The notes under the pieces were generated by a model. The model saw only the letters and a list, made by a program, of their open reading frames with translations, was not told the origin of the DNA and searched no databases. DNA of 32,000 nucleotides from Pyrolobus fumarii 1A (GTDB lineage: Archaea; Thermoproteota; Thermoprotei_A; Sulfolobales; Pyrodictiaceae): positions 1,530,001 to 1,562,000 of the forward strand of contig NC_015931.1 in assembly GCF_000223395.1 (NCBI RefSeq), in the 5' to 3' direction. Shown here piece after piece: positions 7,387 through 29,228 of the stretch. Both the position numbers and the translations under genes were made by a program. Every line of letters starts with the position of its first letter. The stretch's first letter is position 1.

Positions 7387-7898
7387 TACGCGACACCCAG
7401 GAACCTCTCTACCTCCTCCCAAGAACTAGTCACAAGATCAAACCCGTGCCGTTGAAGCGTACGGGCTACACGCTCAGAGTAGCCAGCAACGCAATAGAAG
7501 ACACGTTTTCTAAACACGGTAGGCATGACGAACCATTTTGAACAAGGCCCCCTGCAGCAACCAACAACTACAAGCACAGACCCACCATACAACAACCTCA
7601 ACGTATCAACGATAGCCTGATCCCAGCAGCCTCTCCCACCGACAATACCGAGATACTCGACAGACTCACTGCATGTGGCACTGGACCCAAGACACAATGG
7701 AATCAAGCCACCAGACCACCATATGCCGACCAGAACAACTCCTAACGTTGAACTCGTTAGTCTGGTAACGGCCTCCTTGCCAGCCTCGAACCTACCGCCA
7801 CGCTCCATACAACTGCCACCATCTATCAGGATAACAACGTGCTCCAATGTTGACACCCTGGAATCCCCTGGGGGATTCAGAGGCAGGTAGTACACCAT
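7386..7898 (-). CDS. small vWA-like protein with degenerate MIDAS motif
   Basis: HVVILIDGGSCME sits at the position of DxSxS. The alternating beta/alpha pattern is VVLVGIWWSGG, GGRGCWDQAIVDTLRLL, SVLVVVGCC, RVFYCVAGYSERVARTLQRHGFDLV. Weak, motif-level call only. Confidence 0.45.
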   Translation of the reverse strand: MVYYLPLNPPGDSRVSTLEHVVILIDGGSCMERGGRFEAGKEAVTRLTSSTLGVVLVGIWWSGGLIPLCLGSSATCSESVEYLGIVGGRGCWDQAIVDTLRLLYGGSVLVVVGCCRGPCSKWFVMPTVFRKRVFYCVAGYSERVARTLQRHGFDLVTSSWEEVERFLGVA

Positions 7899-7959
7899 AG
7901 AAAAGAGTCTTAACCGCGGCTATGCCGCCATCCAACACAGCCAAGTGAGGTCGGGGTGC

Positions 7960-10900: not shown

Positions 10901-12429
10901 CGTGGTGGACTAGCGGCATCTACGCGCCAAGCCTAGACGCGCTGCCAAACGGCACGATAATGATGTACGGTTACAGCTGGGACACCGGCTACGCAATCAA
11001 GCTATACGTCGACCAGACCCAGAAGATGACCATCGAGACTGCACAGATCGATGAGACCGGCTCGTGGACGGCCAGCTATACGGTGCCAGCCACCGCGGCG
11101 GGCTCCACGCTGACACTAGAGCTAGACCAGAACGGTCAGAAGGCTGGCGCCTACGTGAGAGTCATAGAGATCAAGAGGAACGCGCTAGTCGCGAAGGTGA
11201 GCAGCGGCCCAGTGGTCTACGAAGATGGCACCGTGAAGATACCAGTGGTGGTCACTGTAACCTACTATGACGTGCCGGTGGCGTGCAACGCCGACGTCAA
11301 GATAAGCGTGAAGGCATACTATGACGTCAAGAAGCACCTAGCCTACAGCCTAGACCTGACACCAGCCGACTGTGTAGAGCCTGGCGTATGGATGGGCGTC
11401 ATTGAGATACCAGTAATCCAGGCACCAACCTACCTAGTGATCGTTGCTAAGGTTGAGTACACGCTAATGGGCGTTGCAAAGCTGACACAGTTCGCAGAGG
11501 CTGGCGTAACGATCGACCCAGAGCTAAAGGCAATGGTGGCGACCGCCGCTGAGAAGGCCGACACAGCTGCTATGGCGGCCGAGGAGGTCAAGACCCTAGT
11601 AGAGACGCTCAACACCAAGGTCGACAGTATAGCTACAACTGTCGAGGGCATCGACACCAAGCTAGCCAGCATCGCTGCTAAGCTAGACACAATCGGTACA
11701 AGCCTAAGCGACATCGCTGCTAAGCTAGATGACATCAAGACCAGCCTAACGAGCGCTGTAGCCGAGATAACCACCAAGCTAGACAAGATCAGCGGTGACC
11801 TCGAGAGCGTCAAGGCCACACTAGCTGGCATCACCAGTGAGGTGAGCACGGCAGTCAAGGAGGCGCTAGCTGGCGTGGCAACCGTCGACGATGTGAAGAG
11901 CATCGTCGAGAGCGCCAAGAACGCAATACTAGACAAGCTAGCTGCCAGCACCAGCGATGTCAAGGCTGCTGTGGCTGCTGCCAAGAGCGAGCTAGCTAGG
12001 AAGATAGACGAGAGCACTGCGGCAGTAACAAGCGCGGTCGACGCGGCCGTCAACAAGATACTAGGTAAGGTTGACGAGGTGGCGGCAGCCATCACCGACC
12101 TAAAGAACAGCATGGCAACCAAGAGTGATGTGGAGGCTGTGAAGACAGCTGTTGACCAGCTAAGCAGCAAGCTAGACGAGGTCAAGGGCGCGATCACTGC
12201 AAGCGTAGAGGACGTGAAGAAGGCGGTCAACAGCCTAGCCGCCAAGCTAGGCGACGTAAAGGCCGGTGTTGACAGCCTCAAGACCGAGATAAGCAACGTC
12301 AAGAACAGCGTTGACAGCGTTGGCACCAACACGATGATCTTCGGCGCTGCCAGCCTAGTGATAAGCATAATCGTACTAGCTCTACTAATACTCGTGGCTG
12401 TTAAGGGAGGACTACTAGCATCCCACTAA
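7960..12429 (+). CDS. S-layer glycoprotein, tetrabrachion-like (signal peptide, large N-glycosylated ectodomain, long C-terminal coiled-coil stalk, C-terminal TM anchor)
   Basis: Signal peptide is FTLVTLALALVALVALAPAIAAAQP. I see more than twenty N-x-S/T sequons by eye (NYT, NVT, NLT, NET, NKT...). About 300 aa of Ala/Ser/Lys/Asp heptad-type repeats run from roughly 11520 to 12300. The protein ends in the hydrophobic anchor MIFGAASLVISIIVLALLILVAV. The ORF is open from GTG 7945; ATG 7960 or 7969 is the more likely start. Confidence 0.8.
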   Translation: MSAMSRFTLVTLALALVALVALAPAIAAAQPYKFTRPLTVVVWKGSLIEVYLNYTELADQYGLGPKGYQFALGIPGTAQPLTDQPLPILISDPAGTTFCTVGYIIIDIGSTNINYALWMTSSLNYTFTADIGTGVRATYMLFRSPAENDYLVHLYNVTGNSEVGTLNIYAKVYFPDKGSLEAAIKAANDGTVPPACQDLIDRWCANGCWLPVYGVIVPEDLPLTPGNRYSLLIKTTASTTWAFEGGLYVQAMEPNEILVKFDAGTSNVLAFGRKTPQKITLADGSNIYAVGALNVTINWTVLRSAIENSLSENLGVRNVSAVVRVVYRPSIYSLGQILAESGIVTYSSTSMNYTAAGSLLTNASAGSLPARILGGEFGTFNKSNVGAIIFNLTVNPDATLPIVNKMLALKYSVGGMTIMLPAAEGSVDIVVRVNETVCVGGCVTFDVVGISGATEAVPFWAIAAYIPLGYKITILPSAIYADDMRLDTPDDLVNGFNASLYGDRDALNVYDELRVVLVNFISDMTKFYLPAGTYTILGAGTPNIDRNVTALEALLIKWATGDVVGSTYVNETEGYIAAGNKLAYNRILVIYNVKPAPYAGAYYYLLPVFKLNLTDAEGQITTEVIATLPPINVTNVDNVASGDVKMVSGNTVFRIRPVLFAWPVDVISGSRLTSDTSTVATLGTYIMVYGVGFDLDDAALKLFVGNVSIPFSQLRKILGYQLLRADFIDVVVVNKETGTFGVLVPLWRLYEQGYDVLAGAKTGYITINVTGTGANSDVAGGHGNLGVYTGAAYDAAARYEIVEPAEPLVLLEPRAYINLTGSTATIAGNVTLTVATPDVNVLAYLQDGTIYRNKTAGAAYEKLVSLYPPADNNAMYYNFTHLMAVVITKPATADTTYALVLASGTTPVAFAINMTVSDLASGIYVARGIPVPTVKKGTYILAFYNESATTPVTGTGARIRMVPSVVFHSVEMGVADMSTVAWWTSGIYAPSLDALPNGTIMMYGYSWDTGYAIKLYVDQTQKMTIETAQIDETGSWTASYTVPATAAGSTLTLELDQNGQKAGAYVRVIEIKRNALVAKVSSGPVVYEDGTVKIPVVVTVTYYDVPVACNADVKISVKAYYDVKKHLAYSLDLTPADCVEPGVWMGVIEIPVIQAPTYLVIVAKVEYTLMGVAKLTQFAEAGVTIDPELKAMVATAAEKADTAAMAAEEVKTLVETLNTKVDSIATTVEGIDTKLASIAAKLDTIGTSLSDIAAKLDDIKTSLTSAVAEITTKLDKISGDLESVKATLAGITSEVSTAVKEALAGVATVDDVKSIVESAKNAILDKLAASTSDVKAAVAAAKSELARKIDESTAAVTSAVDAAVNKILGKVDEVAAAITDLKNSMATKSDVEAVKTAVDQLSSKLDEVKGAITASVEDVKKAVNSLAAKLGDVKAGVDSLKTEISNVKNSVDSVGTNTMIFGAASLVISIIVLALLILVAVKGGLLASH
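11671..11754 (+). repeat. 42-bp tandem duplication encoding 14-aa (two-heptad) coiled-coil units
   Basis: atcgctgctaagctaga occurs at 11671 and again at 11713, exactly 42 nt apart. The units encode IAAKLDTIGTSLSD and IAAKLDDIKTSLTS, and the following units (AVAEITTKLDKISG, DLESVKATLAGITS) keep the 14-aa period. Confidence 0.8.
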
Positions 12430-12462
12430 GCGTGAAAACGAGTAACACATGACTCCCGATGA

Positions 12463-12484
12463 TTTTCCTGCCCCAAGTTTTTTC
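12463..12484 (+). terminator. oligo-T tract after S-layer gene (archaeal intrinsic terminator candidate)
   Basis: GATTTTCC and then TTTTTT (12478-12483) lie within 55 nt of the TAA stop and are followed by an AT-rich spacer. Confidence 0.4.
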
Positions 12485-12718
12485 ACACAACTTGCGTATC
12501 CTGTATCTTTGTTTCACCTCTCTCATCTGTGTATCTAAGTCGTGTTGTTTTCTCATTCGCCTTCTGTAATTGTAGGGAGTTTCGAGGGGTGATACCCTCA
12601 CGCTCTATACTTTTCATTGTTTGTCGATTTTGTACTGAAAAATGTATGTCTTGTTAAATACTTGCAGGGTACTCTCTCCGCGCCTTTTACTTCAACGTTG
12701 ATAGGATGGGATTGACTG

Positions 12719-13000
12719 ATGCCCGATTTAGTGGTGTTGCTTAACGATATTCTAAGACGTGTTGTGATGCTAGCTTGGGGTGTGTTCCTTCTAACTTGGA
12801 GTATAGGGTGGGCGTTGAGAGGTGCACCAATACCCATAATGCGGTTAAAGAGGAGTGGTCAACACATGATAGAGGATGCAGTATGGGCAGCATTCTGGCT
12901 CTCTATGGGTTCAACGATATTCTGGATTGTATCTGTAGTGGCAAGTAGTGTGGCTGAGACCATTGGCGGACCTAGAGTAAATATTACAGTATTGCGATAG
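12719..13000 (+). CDS. cedA1: small two-TM hairpin membrane protein, VirB2/TrbC-like pilin candidate (CedA1-like)
   Basis: The 93-aa protein has two hydrophobic helices (VVMLAWGVFLLTWSIGWAL and AVWAAFWLSMGSTIFWIVSVVASSV) separated by a basic loop. It is the first gene of a cluster ending in a VirB4-like ATPase. The assignment rests on architecture and gene order, not alignment. Confidence 0.5.
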   Translation: MPDLVVLLNDILRRVVMLAWGVFLLTWSIGWALRGAPIPIMRLKRSGQHMIEDAVWAAFWLSMGSTIFWIVSVVASSVAETIGGPRVNITVLR

Positions 13001-13017
13001 GCGGGGTGTAATTCTCC

Positions 13018-14487
13018 ATGGAGTTTAGTGTATCGAGTGTATTGTCTCTTGCTTACCTGTTATCTGTCATAAACTATTACGTTGGTCTTGTGTTGTACGC
13101 GATGCCTGCTCCGATTGCCGTGAAGAGGTTTGGGCTTAGAATGTCATATCATGGTGCTATTGCGGCTCTCCTAGTAATGTTGTACGGTAGTCTAGTCTAT
13201 GTCGTAGAGCTGACATTTAAAACACTGGGGTTAAGCTGGGAGTCACTCTCTAGTTTCTATACGAGATCTAGCTTGCTAGCCTCCGGCTTCTACTCGATGG
13301 CTGCATTGTTAGCGTCCTTCCGCAGTCATATACTTGGTATAGTTCCCGATGCGATGCGTAACCTAGTGTCTATCATACTAAACACGGCTTATCGGAACTT
13401 GATGCGGGCATCAATATTGATAGGTACTAGCGAGGCTATGGTAAAGCTTGTTGCTAGCTTGGCTTATCATTACTGGGATAAGCTCGTGCTATTGGGAGTA
13501 CTGTTATACTCTCTGCCTGCTGGTGTTGGGCGCAAGGCTGGGGCTAGTCTCATAGCAAGCGGCATAGTATTGTACATTGCAGTTCCGTTGCTCCCGCTTT
13601 GGGTCAATATGTGGCTAGATTCAGTTGCGAAGTCCAATCCTATAGCGGCTCTCGTGGGTGGATTGGGTTATGCGAAACCCACGCTCTACATGCTATGGGG
13701 TAATGTGGTTGATCATAGTGGTCTAGGGCAGGGGTATACTATTGCCCTGTGGAGGGGTGGCGTACCGCTAGTAGCTAGGAGCGGGTACGCATCATATATT
13801 GTTACTTACCCCTTGGAGCCCGGCACGTACCTGCTTCAGGTATATGCGGGTCCAATTGTTGTAAAGAGTAGGGTAGTGTCAATCCCGGATGAGTGTCTGG
13901 AAAGTGAGTCGCCGTTTACCGATTTGTTAACTGTTATACAGCTTCTTGTGAATAACTTGTTGTATGGTAGAGTTGTGCAGTGTAAATACGATGTGATGCT
14001 CGAGAATGTGTTGATGCTCGGTGAGCACATTCTCGTAGAGTGGCCATCTACAGTACAAGTGTTGAGCTACGACTACAATCAGAGCGACGATGGCGTTTTT
14101 GTCAACATTAGTTTCGAGGGTAGTGGTGTTGTAAAAGTATGCGCGTGTTGCGGTTGTAGTGTGGATAGTTTATCAGGTATTATTGTAGAGAAGGAGGAGC
14201 AAGAAGACGGTGTTAGCTGCAGCTATTATCGCGTCGAAGACAGTACAGTGATAGCCATAACTGCGAGAGAATGTGGTGCTACTTTCTCCTCTGTGGCGCC
14301 ACAAGGTGGTATACAGTATCCGCTCTTGGATTTCTTGCTGCACGATATTCCGATGGCAGTTTACATGCTGGCAATGGGTTATGCGGCAGGCGTATGGAGC
14401 TATCTGATGCTTCTATCCCTGCTCATATATGGGTTTGGAAGAGTGCTTGGTGAAAGCGGGGTGCTAGTCATACGTATACGATACTAG
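13018..14487 (+). CDS. cedA: polytopic membrane protein (about 6 N-terminal TM + about 200-aa non-membrane domain + C-terminal TM), CedA/VirB6-like candidate
   Basis: Hydrophobic segments lie at roughly aa 5-28, 45-65, 85-105, 130-170, 175-200 and 440-480. The middle region contains a prealbumin/CarboxypepD_reg-like stretch (YPLEPGTYLLQVYAGPIVVKSRVV) and a Cys cluster, VKVCACCGCS. It sits between two small membrane ORFs. Confidence 0.55.
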   Translation: MEFSVSSVLSLAYLLSVINYYVGLVLYAMPAPIAVKRFGLRMSYHGAIAALLVMLYGSLVYVVELTFKTLGLSWESLSSFYTRSSLLASGFYSMAALLASFRSHILGIVPDAMRNLVSIILNTAYRNLMRASILIGTSEAMVKLVASLAYHYWDKLVLLGVLLYSLPAGVGRKAGASLIASGIVLYIAVPLLPLWVNMWLDSVAKSNPIAALVGGLGYAKPTLYMLWGNVVDHSGLGQGYTIALWRGGVPLVARSGYASYIVTYPLEPGTYLLQVYAGPIVVKSRVVSIPDECLESESPFTDLLTVIQLLVNNLLYGRVVQCKYDVMLENVLMLGEHILVEWPSTVQVLSYDYNQSDDGVFVNISFEGSGVVKVCACCGCSVDSLSGIIVEKEEQEDGVSCSYYRVEDSTVIAITARECGATFSSVAPQGGIQYPLLDFLLHDIPMAVYMLAMGYAAGVWSYLMLLSLLIYGFGRVLGESGVLVIRIRY

Positions 14488-14495
14488 GGACGAGT

Positions 14496-14663
14496 ATGAC
14501 GCTAGAAATTAGTGCAAGAGATAAACGCCTTCAAATAGCTTTCTTGCTGATGACGCTACCTCTGGTTATCATGGGGGATACGATCCTACGTTTACTCTCC
14601 ATTATCGCGCTATCATCGGGTCTAGTAGCATTTGTGCTTGTAGAGAGGGTTGAGGAGAGTTGA
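14496..14663 (+). CDS. cedA2: unlisted 55-aa two-segment membrane ORF (CedA2-like candidate)
   Basis: My hand translation from ATG 14496 gives MTLEISARDKRLQIAFLLMTLPLVIMGDTILRLLSIIALSSGLVAFVLVERVEES, ending at TGA 14661-14663. The stop overlaps the TTG start (14660) of the ATPase gene as TTGA. The ORF is below the 60-aa cutoff of the ORF track. Confidence 0.45.
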   Translation: MTLEISARDKRLQIAFLLMTLPLVIMGDTILRLLSIIALSSGLVAFVLVERVEES

Positions 14664-16252
14664 TCGATCCTGCGCTTGTGTTTCTCCTTGTAGGTGTTGC
14701 TTCTGCCGTGGTGCAAGCTGCTCGCAGTGTTTGGGGTGGAAGGAGTACTGCGAAGCTAGCTGCTCTGTCGGGATTGAAGGTAAACCATGAATATATAAAG
14801 CTAGGTGATAAGTGCTATACTGTCGTCCTCGTAGAGGACTTGGTGTGTGTCTTTGAAGCTGGTGAGTTATTCGCAAAAAGCTTGGAGTTGATAATTTCAT
14901 CTCAGGAGGTCGCAGGTGTTATTGTTGCTAAGCATAGTGTTGACAGAAGCTCAGCTCTCGCAAACCTAGAGAATAGTATTATGTCTTTGCGTGTAGTCCT
15001 TGAGCGAGAGCCTGGTAACAAGAACGTTGAGAGAAAGCTGCGTATACTCGAGAGGATGTACGAGAGTATAATGACTGGTTATCAGCCGGTTAAAGCCGTG
15101 ATTGGAATCGTTGTTAGGGGTGAATGTAGAAGAAGTCTATACAGAGAAGCTGAGCGCATAGCCAGGGAGATAACAAAGCTCGGATGCAAAGCTAAGGTTA
15201 TGACGGGCCAAGAAGCGCTCAAGGCACTCTTGCTGCCATTATCTTATAGCGGCTCTAGAAAAATTACAACAAGCAGGCAAGTTGTTACAAGCTTGTATGG
15301 TGCGTTGTCTAACACGCTAAGTAGTACACGTGAAGGCATCTACCTTGGTAGAAGGAATGATGGTGTTGCTTTTCTTCTTCCGCTCTGGTCGTCTAGCGGT
15401 AGCTTGCATTATGTGATTGTAGGGCCTACTGGTAGAGGTAAGACAACCTTAGAGGCAATCCTGGCGGTGCGCGCAGACGCAATGGGTATCAACGTGTACA
15501 GCGTCGACCCAAAGGGTGACCTTGCAAATTACTTGTCAGGGTTCCTCAGGATCGTGAAACTGACCATACGTGAAGTGTTTGAAAGCATGTTATGGTTGTA
15601 TCGTGAGGGTGTCATAGACAAGCGTGTGGTTAGCGAGGCGCTTGCAGAGCTAAACTTGGATACCATTATTGACGCTGCTATAACAGCTGCAGAGGAATGT
15701 AAACCGCTTTACCGCCTTGTTGATGGCCACTTGTTATCAAGATTAAAGAGGCTAGGTTTGAGCAACGTGACATGCCGAAGGCCATCATGGGTAAGCTCGG
15801 GGGTAGTGTATGATGTCAGCGGTCTACCAGAGGCGCTCAAGAGTATCGGCGCTATTGTAGTTTCCCTATCAGCTCTTTCTAGACGAAGTAGAGGGCTACT
15901 TCTCATTGACGAGGCGTGGCGTATTGGAAAACTTGCCTCGTTGCACGTTATACGCCTGTACAAAGAGGCGAGGAGCGCTGGACTAAGTATAGTGTCGGCT
16001 ACACAGGATCCAGACGACCTTCCACAAGAGATATACAACAATTCGTATGGTGTGATACTCTTCGGGTCTAACGACGAGGAGTATATCACCAGGGTTGTTA
16101 AGAGATTGGGGCTTAGTAGTGAGGATGGGCGCAAGTTGCGCATGCTAGGTGTTGGCGAGGTTCTCGTGAGGCTTGCTGGATCTAGACCAGAGCTGGTAGA
16201 GATTGATGCGAGTGAAATCCTTGGAATGAAGGGGTTAAAGGCTGGCAGTTAG
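14660..16252 (+). CDS. cedB: VirB4/TrbE-like (HerA-FtsK superfamily) conjugation-type ATPase with N-terminal TM helix, CedB-like
   Basis: N-terminal hydrophobic helix is ALVFLLVGVASAVVQAA. Walker A is VIVGPTGRGKTTL. Walker B is LLLIDEAWRIGK, the DEAW form typical of VirB4. VSATQDPDDL follows. TTG start coupled to the upstream small ORF. Confidence 0.8.
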   Translation: MIDPALVFLLVGVASAVVQAARSVWGGRSTAKLAALSGLKVNHEYIKLGDKCYTVVLVEDLVCVFEAGELFAKSLELIISSQEVAGVIVAKHSVDRSSALANLENSIMSLRVVLEREPGNKNVERKLRILERMYESIMTGYQPVKAVIGIVVRGECRRSLYREAERIAREITKLGCKAKVMTGQEALKALLLPLSYSGSRKITTSRQVVTSLYGALSNTLSSTREGIYLGRRNDGVAFLLPLWSSSGSLHYVIVGPTGRGKTTLEAILAVRADAMGINVYSVDPKGDLANYLSGFLRIVKLTIREVFESMLWLYREGVIDKRVVSEALAELNLDTIIDAAITAAEECKPLYRLVDGHLLSRLKRLGLSNVTCRRPSWVSSGVVYDVSGLPEALKSIGAIVVSLSALSRRSRGLLLIDEAWRIGKLASLHVIRLYKEARSAGLSIVSATQDPDDLPQEIYNNSYGVILFGSNDEEYITRVVKRLGLSSEDGRKLRMLGVGEVLVRLAGSRPELVEIDASEILGMKGLKAGS

Positions 16253-16275
16253 AGGCCGCGGGTTGGGGAACGAGA

Positions 16276-16992
16276 GTGGGTAAACGAATACTCGTCCAGA
16301 GGATGGGTAGAGGCAGTCCAACGTTCCGCAGTAAACCATGGATACACCCAGCGCCAGCCAAGTACCCGCCGCCAGCGCCAGTGACACTACGCGGGCGTGT
16401 CGTCGAGCTAGTTCATGATCCGGGTAGGTGGTGCCCGCTAGCAAAGATAGTGCTGGAGAACGGTGTCGAGTTCTACACTGTAGCTGCAGAGGGTATGTAC
16501 GTCGGTCAAGTGATCAAGATAGGACCAGATGCCGAGCCCGTCAACGGCAACATACTGCCTCTTGGTAAGATCCCAGAGGGTACACAGATATTCAATATCG
16601 AGATACGCCCAGGTGACGGTGGTAAGCTAGCGCGTGCACCAGGCTCCTATGCAATCGTAGTGGGTAGGACTGGTAACAAGACAATAGTCCAGCTCCCGAG
16701 TGGTAAGGTCAAGGAGCTTCCGAATGATGCTCGCGCTACTATAGGTATACCGGCTGGCGGCGGAAGGCTCGAGAAGCCACTACTCAAGGCTGGGAATGCT
16801 TACCACAAGTGGAAGGTCAAGGCCCACAAGTGGCCACGCGTGCGCGGTGTAGCCATGAACGCTGTAAGCCACCCACATGGCGGTGGCAGCCACCAGAGTC
16901 CAAGCTTCCCAACGACCGTTGCAAGAGAGGCGCCACCAGGCCAGAAAGTCGGTCACATCGCTGCCAGGCAGACTGGCCGCAAGAAGAGGTAG
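16276..16992 (+). CDS. rpl2: 50S ribosomal protein uL2 (L2P)
   Basis: MGKRILVQRMGRGSPTFRS, PGDGGKLARAPGSYA, IPAGGGRLEKPLLKAGNAYHKWK and VRGVAMNAVSHPHGGG are classic uL2 signatures. GTG start 23 nt after the cedB-like stop. Confidence 0.95.
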   Translation: MGKRILVQRMGRGSPTFRSKPWIHPAPAKYPPPAPVTLRGRVVELVHDPGRWCPLAKIVLENGVEFYTVAAEGMYVGQVIKIGPDAEPVNGNILPLGKIPEGTQIFNIEIRPGDGGKLARAPGSYAIVVGRTGNKTIVQLPSGKVKELPNDARATIGIPAGGGRLEKPLLKAGNAYHKWKVKAHKWPRVRGVAMNAVSHPHGGGSHQSPSFPTTVAREAPPGQKVGHIAARQTGRKKR

Positions 16993-17037
16993 CGCTAAAA
17001 CCCCTATACCCTATGCATCTCGTGAGACAAGAGTACG

Positions 17038-17045
17038 GGTGGTGA
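17038..17045 (+). promoter_or_regulatory. Shine-Dalgarno-like GGTGGTGA upstream of rps19
   Basis: GGTGGTGA lies 4 nt before ATG 17050. The identical octamer precedes rpl3. Confidence 0.5.
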
Positions 17046-17049
17046 GCAC

Positions 17050-17496
17050 ATGTCTGCTGAGATAAAGAAGTGGCTTGAGATGTTGCCACCCGAGTGGAGG
17101 AAGTTCAGGTACCGCGGCTACACGCTTGAAGAGCTACTCCAGATGAGCATGGATGAGTTCGTGAAACTGCTACCCGCTAGGCAGAGACGTAGCCTACTAC
17201 GCGGCTTCACAGAAGCTCAGCGTATACTACTAAGGAAGATCAAGAAGGCTAGACAGAAGATGCTGAAGGGCGAGAAGGTAGTGATAAAGACTCACGTACG
17301 GGACATGATAATACTGCCGGAGATGGTCGGGTTGACTATAGCCGTCTATAACGGCAAGGAGTTTGTACCAGTTAAGATAACGCCAGAGATGATAGGTCAC
17401 TATCTAGGAGAGTTCTCGCCAACGTGCAAGATCGTCAAGCACGGCGAGCCAGGCCTCAAAGCCACAAAGAGCACGCTGCACGTCGCACTCAAGTAA
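17050..17496 (+). CDS. rps19: 30S ribosomal protein uS19 (S19P)
   Basis: [62 protein letters not shown] and KHGEPG are typical of archaeal S19. Confidence 0.95.
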
Positions 17497-17561
17497 AGCT
17501 ATTCACCTTTTACAACTATCAAGCCGTTTTTGCCTCCACGAGTTTCGCGGGGTCGCTTATT

Positions 17562-18104
17562 TTGCCCGACCCGCGTATAATCCGTGACAAGTATTGTTCG
17601 ACTGCAACTGGCTACGACGAGCTATACCGGGAGGAACAGTTTGAGAAATATGAGGTTGTATTCAACGAGCATAGGCCGAAAGGGGTAGTGGCCGACGTAG
17701 GCGCAGGCACGTGCCTCCTTGAAGAGTATTTTGTAACTCGTAATATCCTATCAAGTGTTTTGTATATACTTGCGCTAGACTTAACGCCTTGTATGTTAGA
17801 TTTGTGTAGGGAGAGGTTATCAAAACTAAATGTGATGCATTTAGTGGATATTGTTGAGTGTGATGCTGTTCATCTTCCGCTTCGGGATAACTCTGTTGAC
17901 GAGAGCTATGCATTCACAGTTTTTGATCTTGTAAGTGATGCGGAGAAAGCCATACGTGAGCAAGTTAGAGTTACACGCAAACGCGCTATCTACACGTTAT
18001 TGAAACGTGCGGAAGCTCATAGAAGATTTAGCCTATGTCAAAGGTATCATGGTGAGACGAGCAAGGACGTCATCTGCTCACCCAGGGCTTTCAACAGCAA
18101 CTAG
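17562..18104 (+). CDS. class I SAM-dependent methyltransferase
   Basis: Motif I is VVADVGAGTCLLEEY. Motifs ALDLTPCML, CDAVHLPLRDNSVD and AFTVFDLV follow. The listed ORF (17424) overlaps rps19, so I take the first in-frame TTG after the rps19 stop (17562). The start is uncertain and the gene is AT-rich relative to its neighbours. Confidence 0.65.
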   Translation: MPDPRIIRDKYCSTATGYDELYREEQFEKYEVVFNEHRPKGVVADVGAGTCLLEEYFVTRNILSSVLYILALDLTPCMLDLCRERLSKLNVMHLVDIVECDAVHLPLRDNSVDESYAFTVFDLVSDAEKAIREQVRVTRKRAIYTLLKRAEAHRRFSLCQRYHGETSKDVICSPRAFNSN

Positions 18105-18285: not shown

Positions 18286-19212
18286 TTAACGTCTACAAAT
18301 CCTCGTGTTGAGCAGCGTTGAGGTGAGCCTACACGTAAAGCATACCATGGATTGTGAAGGTGAACCACAGTATACACACCGTTGAGGTGCACTAGGCTTA
18401 ACCCGGTAATAGGCTAGTCTCAGTAGATTGCCGATTATGGAGGGATACCTAGATCGGAGGCTACCCGCAGCTGCTTTCATAGCAGATGATAAGCTACGGG
18501 TTGGCTTAAAGGGGCACGGCGTCTCGGTGAAAGGCAAGCCCCGCGCAATTACGTAGTTTAGTGTGTCGCGCTCTCCCACCAGTAGCAGTGGACGTAGCCT
18601 CATCAGTTGCTCGCCCTTCTCTACAACTGCAAATCCCTCATCCTCTTGTCCCGAAGCCATATTCACTAGAGTGAACGCTGTAAGATCATCAAGCGTGTGG
18701 CCAGTTGCTATAGCATCTGCGCCGAGAGCATGTGCAACCTCCTCTAGAATCCTTCTCTTAATGGAGCCGCAAAGTGCACAGGTAGGCCTTCTAACAATAT
18801 TGTTTATATAAGCTTCACTAGCACAGTTGGTATCCACGCCGAGAACCTCTCTACTATCGACAATCACGTATGGTACGCCAACAGAGTTGTATACGTCTAC
18901 AACTACACGGAGCGCGTGTCTACTATACTCTGGTATGTGCAGGTCTATCGTGACTCCTACGACATCGAAACCCTCGTGGCGTGACACCCACGCTAGGGCA
19001 TCAAGAAGAGCGACACTATCCTTTCCTCCAGACACTCCAACTATCACACGACGTGGCTTCAGTTTAGCCTTGCGCAAGGCGTCGCGTACGCGCCGCCTAA
19101 AAGCTTCTATGTAATGTCGACGGCATAGTGCTATGTTAGGTGCCCAGGACGGTGTAAACTCGCCAGGGGCGCCGCATCTAGCGCATCTTGGCTTGTAGAG
19201 CCTAGGTGGCAC
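18286..19212 (-). CDS. ttuA: TtuA/NcsA-family PP-loop tRNA 2-thiolation protein
   Basis: N-terminal CARCG...C zinc finger and PP-loop VGVSGGKDSVALLDAL. CALCGSIKRRIL, GHTLDDL and C-terminal CVYCG...CFTC are present. GTG start 9 nt after the upstream vWA gene stop. Confidence 0.85.
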   Translation of the reverse strand: MPPRLYKPRCARCGAPGEFTPSWAPNIALCRRHYIEAFRRRVRDALRKAKLKPRRVIVGVSGGKDSVALLDALAWVSRHEGFDVVGVTIDLHIPEYSRHALRVVVDVYNSVGVPYVIVDSREVLGVDTNCASEAYINNIVRRPTCALCGSIKRRILEEVAHALGADAIATGHTLDDLTAFTLVNMASGQEDEGFAVVEKGEQLMRLRPLLLVGERDTLNYVIARGLPFTETPCPFKPTRSLSSAMKAAAGSLRSRYPSIIGNLLRLAYYRVKPSAPQRCVYCGSPSQSMVCFTCRLTSTLLNTRICRR

Positions 19213-19221
19213 TGTAAACCC

Positions 19222-21198
19222 CTAGATACCTGAGAGACGCGAGAGAAACCTTGGTATATCCTCTGGCCGGGCGACAACCCTGACTGTAGCATACTCGGAC
19301 ACAGCCCTGCGCTCGTTACTACAGTGGCGCGGCGGTAGTATGAAGAGAAGGTGCCACCCCTCTCGAGCTAATCTAGCCGCGGTTTCTGATGGTCTCTCGT
19401 CTTCAACTGTCTGGCACAAGTCAGTGACTATAACCATCTTCGAGGGTGTTGTGTAGACTCGTGCTGTTTCGCGGAGGGCTACTGAAATGTTAGTATAGCC
19501 TTCGAATGATACGCGGAAGAGTAACTCTATAATCCTGCGGCGCGAAAGCTTCCAGGCATTCTGAACTATTTCTACGTCACTTGAGAAGAGCGTAAGGGTA
19601 TACACGAGACCCGAGAAACTGGAAGCCGCAAGAAGCGCCCATAGAGTGTACTTGGCCATGCTGCCACTAGTATCGAGAACGAGCGCTATACTAGGCTTCT
19701 TTCTACGCTTCCTGGCGACAATAGGATTCTCTCTCAGCGCGACCAGGTTATACACTGTCCGTCTAACATCTACCCGGCCTCTCTGCGAGATTATGGTTTC
19801 ACTGCTCCTCTTCGCATGTTTAGCTGCACGTGCTTCCATCCTACGCCATACTATCTCGGCAAGCCTCAGGGCGGTGCGCTTAAGATGATCGTCGCCGCTT
19901 CTGTAAACCTCCCGGAGATAGAGAAGAGCCTCATCCGGTTGCATGCGCTTTACGATAGAATAAAGACGTATCATCGCATCGCTTACACCCTCAATAACAG
20001 AGCGTAGCTGTTCGACACGCTCCCGGTACCTCTCGATGGCCCTGATAGCCCAATCTGGCGCCTCACTATAGTCTATCTGTTTCACTTTCTCTAACTCGTA
20101 GAGAGCATAGTCTAGTTGTGCTTCATCCCCCCTGGCTGCAGCTAAGAAGCCCTGCTCGGCACGAGCAAGCATACCTGCAATTGCAACAACAGCCTCTTCC
20201 CAGCTTCTAGGCTGCCTTGATATCCTAACTTCGCTCCAAACGCTGAGATCCACCTCGCCTAGGAGCCCCGCTGCAACACCAATACCTCTGCGATCATGCG
20301 AGATCTTGCGGAGTATGGAGCGGAGAGCGTTAGCATCAAGCAGGCGAAGAGCCTCGGCCAGCATGTCGCGTGATTCGCGGCTTCTCAGCAACTCTAGGGC
20401 CAGACGGGGCTCGCTGCGCAACAGACTAGCCAGACTACGTGGAGTCAGCGCATCGAGATTACGGAGCAATTTGTAAGCGCTCCAAGAGTCTCTTGGGGTC
20501 TCGCCCGATTCGAGTCTCTTAGCAACTATACTTGCGAGTTTACGCGCTAGGCCGCGATTACCCTCTTGTAGTGCCTGTAAAGCGGCTAAAGCAATCCTAT
20601 CTATCTCGATACCATCGAGCTTCTCCTCGTCAACCGGCGCAGCATAGAGTGCAAACCATTCGAGTTTACCTCTAGATATCATGCGAGCCGCACTAGCAGC
20701 AAGAGCATCCCATGCCGACCCATACTGACGTAGAAGTGATCGTATTCGTCTAATTGCGGCATCCCGATCAAGTACAACGTCGCCACGCGGTGTACGTACA
20801 ATGAGGCCAAGCAGGCGTAGACGCGAGTATGCCTCTCTACGCTCCTCGGCGTGAGGGCCATTCAAAAGCTTCTTCTTCGAGTATATCCTCGAGCCCCAGC
20901 CTAGACCAAGCCTACGTAGATCGTCCTCCACGGCGGCTATAACGCGAGCTATAGAGTTTTGACTCTGGTTGATCTCCCTCCACACCCGCTCTACAACGGT
21001 CTCCTCCCTATCGTTATGCGCGAAAACTGCACGGATAACATCGTGGAGTATCTCCTTGTCAAGCTCCTTGCCCTCGAGAAGCGCGAGGTTCTCGGCTATA
21101 CGCAGTGCATCTACGATTTCAGATGTTCCGACTTGTAGACCTTCGCGTCTAAGCCTATAGGCAATGCGTATGCATAGACTCACAAGGTCTTCCTTCAA
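19222..21198 (-). CDS. vWA-domain protein (CoxE-like) with large N-terminal helical region, partner of MoxR ATPase
   Basis: The C-terminal domain has an intact MIDAS motif, KKPSIALVLDTSGSMAKY, then GYTNISVAL and MVIVTDL. The N-terminal ~470 aa are Leu/Arg/Ala-rich and helical. The TTG start overlaps the MoxR stop (TTGA). Confidence 0.75.
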   Translation of the reverse strand: MKEDLVSLCIRIAYRLRREGLQVGTSEIVDALRIAENLALLEGKELDKEILHDVIRAVFAHNDREETVVERVWREINQSQNSIARVIAAVEDDLRRLGLGWGSRIYSKKKLLNGPHAEERREAYSRLRLLGLIVRTPRGDVVLDRDAAIRRIRSLLRQYGSAWDALAASAARMISRGKLEWFALYAAPVDEEKLDGIEIDRIALAALQALQEGNRGLARKLASIVAKRLESGETPRDSWSAYKLLRNLDALTPRSLASLLRSEPRLALELLRSRESRDMLAEALRLLDANALRSILRKISHDRRGIGVAAGLLGEVDLSVWSEVRISRQPRSWEEAVVAIAGMLARAEQGFLAAARGDEAQLDYALYELEKVKQIDYSEAPDWAIRAIERYRERVEQLRSVIEGVSDAMIRLYSIVKRMQPDEALLYLREVYRSGDDHLKRTALRLAEIVWRRMEARAAKHAKRSSETIISQRGRVDVRRTVYNLVALRENPIVARKRRKKPSIALVLDTSGSMAKYTLWALLAASSFSGLVYTLTLFSSDVEIVQNAWKLSRRRIIELLFRVSFEGYTNISVALRETARVYTTPSKMVIVTDLCQTVEDERPSETAARLAREGWHLLFILPPRHCSNERRAVSEYATVRVVARPEDIPRFLSRLSGI

Positions 21199-22124
21199 AC
21201 TCCGAAGACCTCCCTTAGAACCTCGTCCACTACCTCCTCTTCCTCAACCCTCTTGTATAGAGTTACCGTTGCAGCCTCAATAACGTCCCTAACGTCAACT
21301 GTATCGCTTCCACGCAGTTCTGCAAGCCTCGCCGCCACTCTAGCCCATGTGACAGTATCGGCAGGACCCGGTTTATACGAGGCTCTCTTTCTCAACTCGT
21401 TAACAACGGCTATCATAGAACGAAGCAGCTCGTCGGGAAGTTTAGCCCTTGAATCGAGCCTTATGCGTACGATCTCTGCTTCGCGCTCGGGAGGCGGATA
21501 GTCGAAGCGTATCCTTACGACTCTTCTCAGGAAAGCATCGCTAAGTTCGCCCTGCCCGATATCCTCTGGGTTACTAGTGAAGATCACTTGGAATCCTGGG
21601 CCTCTGGCTCTAAACACCTTCCTAAGCTCGGGTACTATTATGCGCCTCTTGTCAATTATGTCAAGAAGCATGTTTTGGAATTCCTCGCTACTCCTTCTAA
21701 TCTCGTCGACAAGGACGCCAGCATCCAGTATTATGGCAGCTAGTAGGGGCCTAGGTATGTAGCTCTCCTCGTTGAAACCATATTTCATGGCCATCAATGG
21801 GTGGAAATCACCGATAACTCGGTACTCGTCATAGTTCTCGCTACAGGGTAACACGAAGGCGGTCTTCCCGGCCCAGAGAGTAAGTATAGCCTCACCAATC
21901 TCAGTCTTGCCGGTGCCGGGTGGCCCCTCAAATAGCACCGGCCTGCCCGCCATAAACGCCGCTAATACCAGTGACACTAGCCTCTTGTCTACTATTAGAC
22001 GGTATTCATCCCTGAGTATGCGTACCATTTCGTCTGGATTACGTACCGGTTTTCGTGTCTCAACCACCTGCCCATAGATCTCATACACTTTCCTCACGAT
22101 GGGGTCATCGGCGTCAACACTCAT
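21195..22124 (-). CDS. MoxR-family AAA+ ATPase
   Basis: Walker A is VLFEGPPGTGKTEIGEAI and Walker B is VLVDEIRRSSEEFQNMLLDIID. VIFTSNPEDIGQGELSDAFLRRV is a MoxR-like sensor/Arg region. Size is 309 aa. Confidence 0.85.
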   Translation of the reverse strand: MSVDADDPIVRKVYEIYGQVVETRKPVRNPDEMVRILRDEYRLIVDKRLVSLVLAAFMAGRPVLFEGPPGTGKTEIGEAILTLWAGKTAFVLPCSENYDEYRVIGDFHPLMAMKYGFNEESYIPRPLLAAIILDAGVLVDEIRRSSEEFQNMLLDIIDKRRIIVPELRKVFRARGPGFQVIFTSNPEDIGQGELSDAFLRRVVRIRFDYPPPEREAEIVRIRLDSRAKLPDELLRSMIAVVNELRKRASYKPGPADTVTWARVAARLAELRGSDTVDVRDVIEAATVTLYKRVEEEEVVDEVLREVFGV

Positions 22125-22197: not shown

Positions 22198-22668
22198 ATG
22201 GTCAAGCGTTTCAGAAAGCGTGGTGGAGAGGTGCCACAATCTCCACCACCAAATGTGCTATTCAGTGTCGCTGTGTGGAGAGGAGCAGAGGTAGAACACT
22301 ACGACGTCTACTTTGAGGATGATGGGATACGCTTCGAATACTTAGGTGGATACTGGGACGGTGTCAAGCCATTTGCGGGCCCAAGTCGCCGCGAAGCTCT
22401 GTTGATCTATAGTGTTTTGAAGAAGAGGCGTAGAAGTGTAGGTGAGAGGCGGATAGAGGATTTCAAGATATCCTATGACGATATAGTCCGTGTTGAGATA
22501 GAGAAGAGAGAGGAGAATGCAAAGATACGTCTATGGATGCGCGATGGGCGCTGGCTAGAGATGAGAATACCAATCAAGATCTACGACCTCGCCTACAAGT
22601 TGCTAAAGAAACGGTTAGAGCGGAGACTACGCGAGAAAGGAGCATGGGTGGTGAGGAGGGCCCGATAA
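22198..22668 (+). CDS. hypothetical basic protein
   Basis: The 156-aa ORF has thermophile-like composition, an AGGAG immediately upstream of the ATG, and is divergent from the MoxR gene. No family recognised. Confidence 0.5.
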   Translation: MVKRFRKRGGEVPQSPPPNVLFSVAVWRGAEVEHYDVYFEDDGIRFEYLGGYWDGVKPFAGPSRREALLIYSVLKKRRRSVGERRIEDFKISYDDIVRVEIEKREENAKIRLWMRDGRWLEMRIPIKIYDLAYKLLKKRLERRLREKGAWVVRRAR

Positions 22669-25700: not shown

Positions 25701-25889
25701 CCACGCTGTACCGGCATGCGGTATGTCGCTGCTAGGATAGGGAGGCCCGTCAAGGAAGAAGAAACGGCGCCTACCTCTGCGCCACTCGCGCAGCTTCGAG
25801 TATATCCTCTCCTTCTCCCAGAAGCTCTTAACCCAATCCTCGACACGCCATGGATCGTAGCTGCCCTCAACCTTACCAACAACGGGCAT
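22704..25889 (-). CDS. ileS: isoleucyl-tRNA synthetase
   Basis: The 1061-aa class I aaRS has the HIGH-region variant PPYPSSDIPHAGTAWNK and the KMSKS-region variant GREMHKSLGN. Zinc knuckles are CPRCGT, CWRCKS, CEKCGN and CPKCGG. Editing-domain and anticodon-binding regions are collinear with archaeal IleRS. Confidence 0.95.
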   Translation of the reverse strand: MPVVGKVEGSYDPWRVEDWVKSFWEKERIYSKLREWRRGRRRFFFLDGPPYPSSDIPHAGTAWNKVLKDAVLRYRRMAGFDTWDKPGYDCHGLPIEVQVEKRLGIKVKREIEEKIGIERFVELCKEFALTNVQGLTRWFKELGVFMDWDNPYLTLRDDYIEAEWWLIKRAWEEGLLERELRVVYWCPRCGTTLAEYEIEYRELTDPSIYVKFKLEGRENEYIVIWTTTPWTLPANAFVMIHPDAEYARVRVGNEILIMARTRVEKVMEEAGISNYEIVDVVKGSELVGLRYIHPLEDVIPLQSKLKKFHEIVAAPEFVTLYEGTGLVHAAPGHGFEDFQVAVKRGWSDAIVAPIDDEGRFTEDAGPLKGLRAREANPTIIDMLRERGALLHAGEISHRYPVCWRCKSPVLLRATPQWIIKVTKLKEKLVKEVKKANWIPSWALDRIMSMLENLQDWVLSRQRYWGAPLPVWICEKCGNTIVVGSLKELVELGGEKPRELHRPWVDRVTLRCPKCGGNARRVPDVMDVWLDSGVAFYASLGHPERIEFSPVDFITEGHDQTRGWFFSLLRAGVIGFGSVPYRNVLVHGFMLDEKGREMHKSLGNYVDTAEIIKKAGRDPFRLWVLQNTTWEDARFSWKALEQARKDLSIVWNVFVFASTYMSLDKFDPTRHKLDELLDKLEAEDRWLLSRLQRLIGRVTRAFEEYRIHEAARAIREFILEDVSRWYIRLIRRRVWLEEENISKITAYATLYHVLRSWLAMASTITPFITEYLYQTFVKPAEPDAPPSVAMLEWPQIDKRLIDEQLEKDMAIVREVVEAAASARMKAGLKLRQPVREIIVFTSDERVSEAVERLSRIVLEQANAKKVSVRSAAELEELLTYDVEPVYARLGPKYRKLTSRIVEYLKSNADKVARDIIREGVHRTVIDGVEVTIEREDVNIRAKPRVGFAIAETSWGSVAVDTRLTEEEIAEGLARDVVRRIQYMRKMLNLPVDAYVEVVVAGPSDALKLLEKLEEYVKSETRAARLLLTSDEHAAREAGGLVMEWEIGDEKFVISVRPAGSAG

Positions 25890-29189: not shown

Positions 29190-29228
29190 GGTGAGCGCGG
29201 GATGCTAGGTACGACCATGTTCCTCCTC

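Follow-up and report, generated by a model that had tools for sequence, protein, structure and literature searches.

The genome of Pyrolobus fumarii 1A carries its uL2-uS19 gene pair detached from the rest of the S10-like ribosomal protein gene cluster, directly behind a set of Ced-like genes, and its uL3-uL4-uL23 block directly in front of uL22. We take this arrangement to be an ancient permutation of the archaeal S10-like cluster, passed on by vertical descent and fixed before the radiation of the Pyrodictiaceae (probability about 0.85). Gene identities, gene order, family-wide spread, congruent phylogeny and correctness of the assembly are all established by the analysis. The window, that is the whole stretch of DNA analysed, is 32,000 nucleotides long, and all coordinates below refer to it.

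Gene order in Pyrolobus fumarii

Three sub-blocks of ribosomal protein genes are present in the window:

16276-16992, + strand: uL2 (rpl2), GTG start; Ribosomal_L2_C (PF03947), 152.3 bits (cut-off 33.7); exact match to AEM39504
17050-17496, + strand: uS19 (rps19); Ribosomal_S19 (PF00203), 119.8 bits (cut-off 27); exact match to AEM39505
28149-29189, + strand: uL3 (Pfam)
29202-30020, + strand: uL4 (Pfam)
30017-30280, + strand: uL23 (Pfam)
30281-30634, no strand: 354-bp spacer, the new uL23-uL22 junction
30635-31105, + strand: uL22, TTG start (Pfam L22; AEM39519)
31108-31836, + strand: uS3 (Pfam)
from 31836, running past the end of the window, + strand: uL29 (translation)

Each sub-block (uL3-uL4-uL23, uL2-uS19 and uL22-uS3-uL29) is contiguous and co-oriented, all on the + strand; neighbouring genes overlap by 4 nt at the closest and lie 57 nt apart at the widest. 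The two adjacencies that would join them in the canonical cluster are absent: uL2 lies about 14 kb upstream of the end of uL23 (30280), and uS19, which ends at 17496, is followed by a methyltransferase gene and eight further genes, not by uL22. Nine unrelated genes occupy the 10,652 bp between the uS19 stop and the uL3 start. With the canonical cluster as reference, uL2-uS19 and uL3-uL4-uL23 stand in each other's place. A preliminary description of this DNA had located uL2-uS19 away from the L3-L4-L23 block, after a VirB4-like gene, and had given the order uL3-uL4-uL23, 354-bp gap, uL22-uS3-uL29; Pfam identities and coordinates bear out both statements. The public gene call for uL22 starts 21 nt downstream of 30635; a P-x-W-x-Y-S motif at the uL22 N-terminus, conserved in nine loci, supports the start at 30635. 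Further downstream the order continues as L29-Rpp29-S17-L14.

The following genes separate uS19 from uL3:

17562-18104, + strand: class I SAM methyltransferase, the first intervening gene (Methyltransf_11, Methyltransf_25)
18286-19212, - strand: PP-loop ATPase (ATP_bind_3)
19222-21198, - strand: VWA_CoxE protein (Pfam), forming a pair with the next gene
21195-22124, - strand: AAA_5 MoxR-like ATPase
22198-22668, + strand: conserved hypothetical protein of 156 aa, its position kept across Pyrodictiaceae loci
22704-25889, - strand: isoleucyl-tRNA synthetase-type class I aaRS (tRNA-synt_1, Anticodon_1, DUF5915)
25946-26209, - strand: hypothetical protein of 87 aa, its position kept in all Pyrodictiaceae loci
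26184-26795, - strand: CxxCxxCC protein (PF03692), its position kept in all Pyrodictiaceae loci
27214-28074, + strand: SPOUT RNA methyltransferase (PF02598; Methyltrn_RNA_3, 195 bits), the usual upstream neighbour of uL3

In many Thermoproteota loci the SPOUT gene immediately precedes uL3. The 156-aa hypothetical protein has no match in Pfam.

The left flank of uL2 is formed by three genes:

12719-13000, + strand: CedA1-like small membrane protein, the left anchor (PF27251, CedA1, on a public gene call of identical sequence)
13018-14487, + strand: CedA-like polytopic membrane protein (weak PF27251 match, taken from the public gene call)
14660-16252, + strand: CedB-like VirB4/HerA-type ATPase (AAA_10, 29.9 bits, cut-off 27.5; HerA_C, 22.5 bits)

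Two PF27251 membrane protein genes followed by a VirB4/HerA-like ATPase gene, cedB, are thus present upstream of uL2, and the AAA_10 and HerA_C matches agree with the "VirB4-like" label first given to the neighbour of uL2. The CedA1 and CedA assignments are based on precomputed PF27251 matches on public gene calls; the Pfam profile search of the two ORFs in the window returned no match. CedA1-like orthologs are equally placed in the loci of Pyrodictium abyssi, Pyrofollis and Staphylothermus type, as are CedA-like orthologs carrying PF27251. The cedB stop lies 23 nt ahead of the uL2 start, and across eight Pyrodictiaceae loci this spacing varies between a 29-nt overlap and a 42-nt spacer, with overlap in two genera.

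A fault of assembly or scaffolding, at 16252-16276 or at 30280-30635, could in principle produce such a gene order; nothing speaks for this explanation, and we assign it practically no probability. The source is a finished genome (1,843,267 bp, about 1.84 Mb). Logan assemblies of three runs (SRR064176, SRR3923853 and SRR064175) reproduce both junctions, and a single 17.6-kb contig (SRR064176_10561) covers the whole region, with CedA, L2-S19, the intervening genes and L3-L4-L23-gap-L22-S3-L29 unbroken. Since these independent assemblies span every junction, the gene order is not an artefact, and the escape through misassembly that the preliminary description had left is closed. The same order is moreover seen in unrelated assemblies of other species.

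The order is common to the sampled Pyrodictiaceae

The arrangement Lhr, CedA1-CedA-CedB, uL2-uS19, AAA5/VWA and other genes, SPOUT-uL3-uL4-uL23, gap, uL22 recurs in Pyrodictium abyssi and Pyrofollis japonicus, both with complete genomes, and, either in full or over the stretch present on each contig, in six MAG contigs (L001-L005 and L027) and five metagenome contigs (L083-L086 and L101). When defined as cedB-uL2-uS19...AAA5/VWA...CxxCxxCC(-)-SPOUT-uL3-uL4-uL23-spacer-uL22, it is found in the window and 13 further loci, a sample that leaves Hyperthermus and the other cultured Pyrodictium species outside. The AAA5-VWA pair is present in all Pyrodictiaceae loci. The methyltransferase gene after uS19 is missing in L004 and L005. 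Two insertions are lineage-specific: the PP-loop ATPase gene, confined to the Pyrolobus lineage (window and L001 only), and the isoleucyl-tRNA synthetase gene (window, L001 and L027 only).

In a neighbour-joining tree of L3+L4+L23 (p-distances, 200 bootstrap replicates) all loci that have this order group in a single clade in 200/200 replicates, which is sister to the Desulfurococcaceae-type loci in 185/200. The uL2 tree is congruent with it. A recent and rare relocation specific to Pyrolobus fumarii, for which the bare gene order of the window is the only argument, is extremely improbable against these data: the order extends over three genera with complete genomes and eleven contigs (six MAG, five metagenome), with uL2 identity falling to 77-79%, its clade has a bootstrap value of 100%, and only the PP-loop and isoleucyl-tRNA synthetase insertions are lineage-specific. 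The preliminary description had called the split rare, and had itself noted that an order common to related lineages would be an ordinary family trait. Every sampled Pyrodictiaceae locus has the order, and the gene-order comparison thus leads to the latter view. As the relatives of the family break the cluster differently, we regard the order as an old lineage trait rather than a rare event.

The position of uL2-uS19 right behind the genes of a DNA-uptake machinery also brings to mind a xenologous replacement, in which a foreign uL2-uS19 pair was gained beside the ced DNA-import genes and the native copies were deleted. This is very unlikely. The uL2 tree mirrors that of L3+L4+L23, with the Pyrodictiaceae sister to the Desulfurococcaceae-type loci, and so gives no sign of a foreign origin; the identities of uL2 and uS19 to those of relatives scale like those of other ribosomal proteins. 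The uL23-uL22 spacer contains no relic of uL2 or uS19, though none would be expected after such a time: a tblastn search (word size 2) of nine spacers gave best E-values of 0.07-1, the same as unrelated controls.

A fluid cluster in related archaea

The S10-type order had been taken as nearly universal, an assumption that does not hold on this branch of the archaea. In the genomes of 80 related archaeal species, L23 and L2 are adjacent in 60 of the 75 testable loci and L2 and S19 in 43 of 68, and S19 lies within 300 bp of L22 in only 4 of 36. These counts indicate that the cluster is fluid here. The Desulfurococcaceae, including Staphylothermus, have CedB-SPOUT-uL3-uL4-uL23-uL2-[AAA5-VWA]-uS19-uL22; in other relatives uL2 stands alone. 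The uL2 and uS19 junctions are a rearrangement hot spot in Desulfurococcales-type archaea, with at least four uL2 contexts. The common assumption of a nearly invariant S10-like gene order is corrected by these observations.

How the order may have arisen

From the distribution of gene orders we infer the sequence of evolutionary events. Between two conserved anchors, the Lhr helicase, PAPS reductase and cedA1-cedA-cedB genes on the left and uL22-uS3-uL29 onward on the right, the segments [SPOUT-uL3-uL4-uL23] and [uL2-uS19] would have traded places on the same strand. They would have come to be separated by the methyltransferase gene, the inverted AAA5-VWA pair, the two small hypothetical genes and the CxxCxxCC gene, with the PP-loop ATPase and isoleucyl-tRNA synthetase genes added in the Pyrolobus lineage only. 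The uL2-uS19 pair had been described as excised and moved upstream. Its displaced position stands; as to the direction of movement, a downstream move of SPOUT-uL3-uL4-uL23 fits equally well, both alternatives looking alike when the left and right anchors are both conserved. Direct or inverted repeats at the junctions, which could have pointed to a mechanism or a mobile element, amount to short chance-level matches, none of them flanking the blocks.

A more specific scenario, to which we give somewhat less than an even chance, is that AAA5-VWA already split uL2 from uS19 in the common ancestor, as in Desulfurococcaceae, that uS19 re-joined uL2 in the ancestor of the Pyrodictiaceae with inversion of the AAA5-VWA pair, and that SPOUT-uL3-uL4-uL23 moved to the place just ahead of uL22 and uL2-uS19 stayed. 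Both sister groups have the AAA5-VWA pair within the cluster (AAA5 identity 61-66%): it parts uL2 from uS19, on the + strand, in Desulfurococcaceae-type loci (L006, L008, L009, L102, L103) and in L087, and it is inverted after uS19 in most Pyrodictiaceae. The locus L087 has the Desulfurococcaceae-type order and groups with those loci in only 7/200 bootstraps, so that parsimony favours that order as ancestral; however, its placement (51% with the L013-L028 group, 32% with Pyrodictiaceae plus Desulfurococcaceae) comes from a three-protein neighbour-joining tree only. No sampled member of the order-level clade outside the Pyrodictiaceae keeps the uL2-uS19 adjacency. In addition, the cluster has cedB on its left in Pyrodictiaceae and Desulfurococcaceae alike, so that removal of SPOUT-L3-L4-L23 accounts equally well for the location of uL2 beside cedB. 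On the other hand, at least two operations lead from an ancestral split to the Pyrodictiaceae order, no fewer than are needed if the ancestor was canonical and AAA5-VWA was inserted independently, and both orders follow just as well from an ancestor whose AAA5-VWA pair lay between uS19 and uL22.

It is a rather doubtful extension of this scenario that the uL2-uS19 adjacency was secondarily restored after an AAA5-VWA split in the common ancestor of Pyrodictiaceae and Desulfurococcaceae, and that the junctions then gained promoters and small-RNA genes. The latter may be a conserved K-turn RNA in most Pyrodictiaceae and a C/D-box-like RNA in Pyrolobus. If true, a restored adjacency would point to selection for co-expression of uL2 and uS19, and to a long-standing, possibly functional association of AAA5-VWA (MoxR/CoxE-like) with the ribosomal protein cluster.

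Under our main reading, an old permutation inherited within the family, the rearrangement is family-wide and visible in already published genomes, and thus of modest interest alone. The order offers a simple synteny marker of the Pyrodictiaceae, and it provides a natural experiment on the relevance of gene order and co-transcription to ribosome assembly in hyperthermophiles.

Candidate transcription signals and the uL23-uL22 spacer

Promoters and terminators we infer from motifs, of which the following are placed in the window:

16235-16240, + strand: TTAAAG box, candidate archaeal TATA box for uL2-uS19, 41 nt upstream of uL2 in the 3' end of cedB
17497-17535, + strand: oligo-T runs after uS19, candidate archaeal terminator (TTTT at 17508-17511, TTTTT at 17527-17531)
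30283-30300: predicted hairpin with T-run after uL23
30420-30481, - strand: candidate C/D-box sRNA in the uL23-uL22 spacer
30528-30536: CCCTAGGCG motif in the same spacer
30591-30596: TTATAA box, 44 nt before uL22

Within 60 nt upstream of uL2 there is no second box of the TTAAAG type. A TTAAAG, TTAATA or TTAAGA box precedes uL2 in 8/8 Pyrodictiaceae loci (at -41/-40 in six and at -51 in two), a conservation that may be due in part to constraint on the coding sequence of the CedB C-terminus. A TTWWWW box is found before uL22 in 9/9 loci, at -44 to -65, with an expectation of 0.05 per 90 nt. Upstream of uL3 we read a TATA-like CTATATTAGGG and a Shine-Dalgarno-like GGTGGTGA; the latter motif is also read ahead of uS19. 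T4-T6 runs follow uS19 in 6/10 Pyrodictiaceae loci, and T-runs also follow uL23.

The conserved TATA-like boxes before uL2, before uL3 and before uL22 suggest that the genes are transcribed as three separate units. The first would comprise uL2-uS19, transcribed from the TTAAAG box in the 3' end of cedB, with Shine-Dalgarno-like motifs and with the oligo-T runs after uS19. The second would be (SPOUT-)uL3-uL4-uL23, from the TATA-like box before uL3 to the hairpin and T-run after uL23, and the third uL22 with its downstream genes, from the TTATAA box in the 354-bp spacer. The new promoter arrangements proposed in the preliminary description thus receive support at the level of motifs. Read-through into uL2 from the ced genes may also occur, given that the cedB-uL2 gap is 23 nt here and that the genes overlap in two genera. 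The ced genes are reported to be DNA-damage induced in Sulfolobales (PMC11868833); control of this kind would suit ribosomal protein genes poorly if the transcript were shared.

The spacer between uL23 and uL22 measures 150-455 bp in Pyrodictiaceae-type loci. In the window it holds no Pfam-recognisable ORF, no tRNA and no Rfam family at gathering score, in agreement with its initial reading as noncoding. Rfam at gathering score and ARAGORN returned nothing over the whole window. The spacer also gives a sub-threshold match to Rfam sR2 (17.6 bits, E-value = 0.14). Another sub-threshold match in the spacer, to the bacterial family L19_leader (E-value = 0.014), we regard as a chance hit. The K-turn element of the relatives has no genuine match in the window (covariance model, filters off).

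Comparison with known systems

The Ced DNA-import system of Crenarchaeota consists of CedA, CedA1, CedA2 and CedB (PMC9905601, PMC11868833); its import activity and DNA-damage induction are known only for Sulfolobales (PMC11868833). The genes upstream of uL2 have the same CedA1-CedA-CedB order, and DNA import is a predicted function here. As for a location of ced genes next to ribosomal protein genes, the word "ribosomal" occurs 0 times in PMC9905601.

The S10 operon of E. coli, S10-L3-L4-L23-L2-S19-L22-S3-L16-L29-S17, has the same universal genes in the same order within each sub-block. In contrast to it, both the L23-L2 and the S19-L22 junctions are broken in Pyrolobus. The bacterial operon is subject to L4-mediated autoregulation.

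A close arrangement is that of the Desulfurococcaceae (Staphylothermus hellenicus-type L103, and MEX13E-LK6-19, L102). These share the left anchor (Lhr, PAPS reductase, CedA1, CedA and CedB), the SPOUT-uL3-uL4-uL23 block, the uL22-to-uL32e series and the presence of an AAA5-VWA pair in the cluster. They differ in that uL2 follows uL23 and the AAA5-VWA pair, on the + strand, parts uL2 from uS19, which adjoins uL22, whereas in Pyrolobus uL2-uS19 follows cedB, AAA5-VWA is inverted and uL23 adjoins uL22.

Archaeal S10/spc clusters in general lack uS10 at their head (PMC10833476). In these clusters uL3-uL4-uL23(-uL2) is separable from the uS19/uL22-to-uL15 core, the small ribosomal cluster often lying apart from the big one, and in Lokiarchaeota uL2 is separate from uL3-uL4-uL23 (PMC10833476). 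As in the clusters described by Tirumalai et al. (2023, PMC10833476), uL3-uL4-uL23 always stay together here, the core from uL22-uS3-uL29 to uL15 is intact, and the breaks occur beside uL2. Our search of the literature found no description of the Pyrodictiaceae permutation. It is unlike those clusters in two respects: uL2 keeps uS19 as a detached pair, and uL3-uL4-uL23 lies directly upstream of uL22, with only the short spacer between them.

Arrangement of the ribosomal protein genes

ORF listing and Pfam scans confirm that all the genes named in the preliminary description are present where it placed them, all on the forward strand. The uL2-uS19 pair lies apart from the rest of its cluster, the canonical order of which is uL3-uL4-uL23-uL2-uS19-uL22-uS3-uL29.

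Ribosomal protein genes in the window
16276-16992, +, uL2 (Pfam; exact match AEM39504)
17050-17496, +, uS19 (Pfam; exact match AEM39505)
28149-29189, +, uL3 (Pfam)
29202-30020, +, uL4 (Pfam)
30017-30280, +, uL23 (Pfam)
354 bp between uL23 and uL22, spacer
30635-31105, +, uL22 (Pfam; protein AEM39519)
31108-31836, +, uS3 (Pfam)
from 31836, +, uL29 (start only in the window)

The VirB4-like gene reported directly 5' of uL2 (14660-16252) encodes a VirB4/HerA-type ATPase with AAA_10 and HerA_C matches. The separator, put at about 10.6 kb, measures 10,652 bp from the uS19 stop to the uL3 start. It contains nine genes, none ribosomal: a SAM methyltransferase, a PP-loop ATPase, a VWA_CoxE protein, an AAA_5 ATPase, a 156-aa hypothetical protein, an IleRS-type synthetase, an 87-aa hypothetical protein, a CxxCxxCC protein and a SPOUT methyltransferase (PF02598). 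The whole window exhibits zero tRNAs and zero Rfam families at gathering score. Both junctions are reproduced in independent Logan assemblies of three sequencing runs, which excludes an assembly error there. A single 17.6-kb contig, SRR064176_10561, spans everything from cedA to uL29, including uL2-uS19, every gene of the separator, uL3-uL4-uL23 and the spacer before uL22-uS3-uL29. The exact protein matches belong to the finished genome of Pyrolobus fumarii 1A, which is 1,843,267 bp long. The feature is real and was correctly described.

Farther upstream, between the PAPS reductase gene and cedA1, a segment of about 7 kb (5406-12429) is a Pyrolobus insertion relative to its relatives. It encodes a hexapeptide transferase, a VWA_2 protein, an RHH/ParD-like protein and a secreted or membrane-anchored protein of 1494 aa. 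The C-terminal half of the latter is a long coiled coil, and it is possibly a surface-layer or cell-envelope protein.

Gene order within Pyrodictiaceae

A uL2 scan of one genome per archaeal species yielded 80 loci, which were annotated by tblastn with the window proteins (handles L001-L103 denote contigs or loci of relatives). Scored over whatever stretch each contig covers, the order Lhr ... CedA1-CedA-CedB-uL2-uS19-(MT)-VWA/AAA5-hyp-hyp-CxxCxxCC-SPOUT-uL3-uL4-uL23-spacer-uL22-uS3 recurs in the MAG contigs L001, L002 (Pyrodictium sp.), L003, L004, L005 and L027, in the complete genomes of Pyrodictium abyssi and Pyrofollis japonicus, and in the metagenome contigs L083-L086 and L101, retrieved with uL22. 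The PP-loop ATPase and IleRS genes are the only separator genes confined to the Pyrolobus lineage; with them, the separator measures about 10 kb instead of about 5 kb. In a neighbor-joining tree of uL3+uL4+uL23, the loci with this order form one clade (200/200 bootstraps), sister to Desulfurococcaceae-type loci (185/200). A uL2 tree branches in the same way, indicating that uL2 was inherited vertically. The preliminary description had presented the split as a rare event, to be abandoned if the order proved common to all related lineages; as the order occurs throughout the sampled Pyrodictiaceae, the comparison came out in that way. Shared by the whole family, the cluster order of P. fumarii is an ancient trait passed down vertically and neither rare nor recent, in a clade where the cluster is routinely rearranged.

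The CedA1-CedA-CedB genes, of the Ced DNA-import type (12719-16252; orthologous loci in L081, L082, L102 and L103), are a conserved left neighbor of the ribosomal cluster, and this neighborhood spans Pyrodictiaceae and Desulfurococcaceae. One paper on the Ced system (PMC9905601) makes no mention at all of ribosomal genes.

Gene order outside the family

None of the members sampled from the surrounding order-level clade has the genes in the canonical contiguous order. Desulfurococcaceae exhibit the order Lhr-PAPS reductase-CedA1-CedA-CedB-SPOUT-uL3-uL4-uL23-uL2-x-AAA5-VWA-uS19-uL22-uS3-uL29, seen in a contig with a uL2 identical to that of Staphylothermus hellenicus, in the complete genome MEX13E-LK6-19, in L006-L009 and in L087. 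CedB-uL2 is followed by unrelated minus-strand genes in L010 (Acidilobaceae) and L011, and uL3-uL4-uL23-uL2 by unrelated genes in L013-L021 and L028; uL2 is solitary in Ignicoccus pacificus, Zestosphaera and L014. Across all 80 species loci, counting those with enough flank as testable, adjacency holds for 60 of 75 uL23-uL2 junctions, 43 of 68 uL2-uS19 junctions and 4 of 36 uS19-uL22 junctions (within 300 bp). Masked stretches that could cause missing genes are present in none of the 80. Since adjacency is often lost, and since uL3-uL4-uL23(-uL2) is already published as a small cluster that can stand apart from the uS19/uL22-to-uL15 core (PMC10833476), the premise of a near-universal order is overstated in this part of the tree.

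Further arrangements were observed. Many of the Korarchaeia- and other Thermoproteota-type loci L022-L050 carry uL3-uL4-uL23-uL2-uS19 and have neither uL22 nor uS3 in as much downstream flank as was covered (up to 10 kb). An insert of 1.3-1.9 kb separates uS19 from uL22 in the Thermofilaceae-type loci L030, L042, L047, L064 and L075. In the metagenome contig L095 (4855-8604), SPOUT-uL4-uL23-uS19 is separated from uL22 by some 0.9 kb of other sequence; with zero tblastn matches to uL3 or uL2, this may be another unusual variant.

History of the rearrangement

The left flank (Lhr, PAPS reductase, ced genes) and the right flank (uL22 onward) are common to Pyrodictiaceae and Desulfurococcaceae. 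Because both flanks are conserved, the change would be a local same-strand exchange of two neighboring blocks, SPOUT-uL3-uL4-uL23 and uL2-uS19. The proposed relocation thus stands as to uL2-uS19 lying away from the cluster, but not as to direction: order alone equates an upstream move of uL2-uS19 with a downstream move of uL3-uL4-uL23.

An AAA5-VWA pair lies within the cluster in both sister groups, with AAA5 61-66% identical.

AAA_5 (MoxR-like) and VWA_CoxE pairs
19222-22124, -, window
11642-14591, L102
11136-13977, L103
7107-9340, L087

The pair is on the plus strand between uL2 and uS19 in Desulfurococcaceae and in the separately branching L087, and after uS19, mostly inverted, in Pyrodictiaceae. 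In its architecture it recalls Rea1/midasin, a eukaryotic 60S biogenesis factor combining an AAA_5 ring with a MIDAS/VWA domain.

A grouping of L087 with the remaining loci of Desulfurococcaceae-type order receives just 7/200 bootstraps, so that parsimony mildly favors an ancestor already split between uL2 and uS19, the uL2-uS19 adjacency of Pyrodictiaceae then being secondary. However, the placement of L087 is not firm and other ancestors need a similar number of steps; we consider a split ancestor possible, at somewhat less than even odds. As for the block exchange, no sequence trace of the event is left: the uL23-uL22 spacer has no uL2 or uS19 relics, and no repeats were found flanking the exchanged blocks.

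Probable expression signals

Judging from motifs, the genes most likely form three units: uL2-uS19, (SPOUT-)uL3-uL4-uL23, and uL22 onward.

Upstream boxes in the window
16235-16240, +, TTAAAG, the box before uL2
30591-30596, +, TTATAA, the TTWWWW box before uL22

Exactly one TTWWWW box precedes uL22 in each of 9/9 family loci, at -44 to -65, with G-rich Shine-Dalgarno-like motifs 3' of it; such hexamers number just 18 on the plus strand of the whole window. The uL2 box (TTAAAG, TTAATA or TTAAGA) falls within cedB or at its end, with a GGGG motif after it; six loci have it at -41/-40 and two at -51. Its conservation may owe something to coding constraint. As cedB ends 23 nt before uL2 here and overlaps it in P. 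abyssi and Pyrofollis (-29 to +42 nt across Pyrodictiaceae), read-through from the ced genes into uL2 is possible. uL3, too, is provided with a TATA-like box, together with a GGTGGTGA motif. As candidate terminators, most loci have oligo-T runs after uS19 and uL23, and the window exhibits a GCTTTT/AAAAGC hairpin 3' of uL23.

RNA-like elements

Every sampled Pyrodictiaceae locus except that of P. fumarii has, on the plus strand of the uL23-uL22 spacer, a single conserved element about 85 nt long, in which a K-turn-type hairpin showing six compensatory pairs precedes an invariant GGAGGCUCCACCCCUAGGCGUCAGGCCCUCCGCACA.

Copies of the K-turn element (all +)
L002, 15992-16079
L004, 18806-18895
L081, 20551-20641
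L082, 20336-20424
L083, 185-273
L084, 9801-9890
L085, 1121-1210
L086, 9791-9880
L101, 2389-2471

Its covariance model scores 69-104 bits in seven loci and 33-35 bits in two, with nothing in the searched sister-group loci and none in the P. fumarii window even with filters off. The sole other match up to E = 1, in L018 (18.6 bits, E 0.23), was treated as chance. Rfam gives no match at the element in three short contigs (L083, L085, L101). The element may be a small RNA of H/ACA-like or L7Ae-binding type. In its place, the P. fumarii spacer contains a candidate C/D-box sRNA, GGGGAUGAACGGGCUGACCUGCACCGAACGAUGAGGAAGAUGGUGGCAGUGGUGACCCC (30420-30481, minus), with a sub-threshold Rfam sR2 match (17.6 bits, E 0.14 in 501 nt); by alignment, L002 and L083 share this C/D-box-like sequence in their spacers.

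A weak C/D-box-like sequence (GAUGAAG, 12 nt, CUGA) occurs at 27065-27135 (minus) in the 418-bp CxxCxxCC-SPOUT intergenic region, with sub-threshold sR14 and sR1 matches (E 1-4). The 9-mer CCCTAGGCG, also part of the relatives' K-turn element, has exactly four copies in the window (about 0.24 expected for an exact 9-mer), at 26988-26996 (+), 27009-27017 (-), 27236-27244 (-) and 30528-30536 (+), all close to where the SPOUT-uL3 and uL22 units begin. A hairpin upstream of SPOUT (stem about 11-12 bp, roughly 26987-27019) has two of these copies as its arms.

Comparison with known variation

No description of this particular permutation was found in the literature searched; it is visible in published, annotated genomes. 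In Lokiarchaeota, uL2 is detached as well (PMC10833476), and the Pyrodictiaceae permutation adds one more case to a kind of variation already known.
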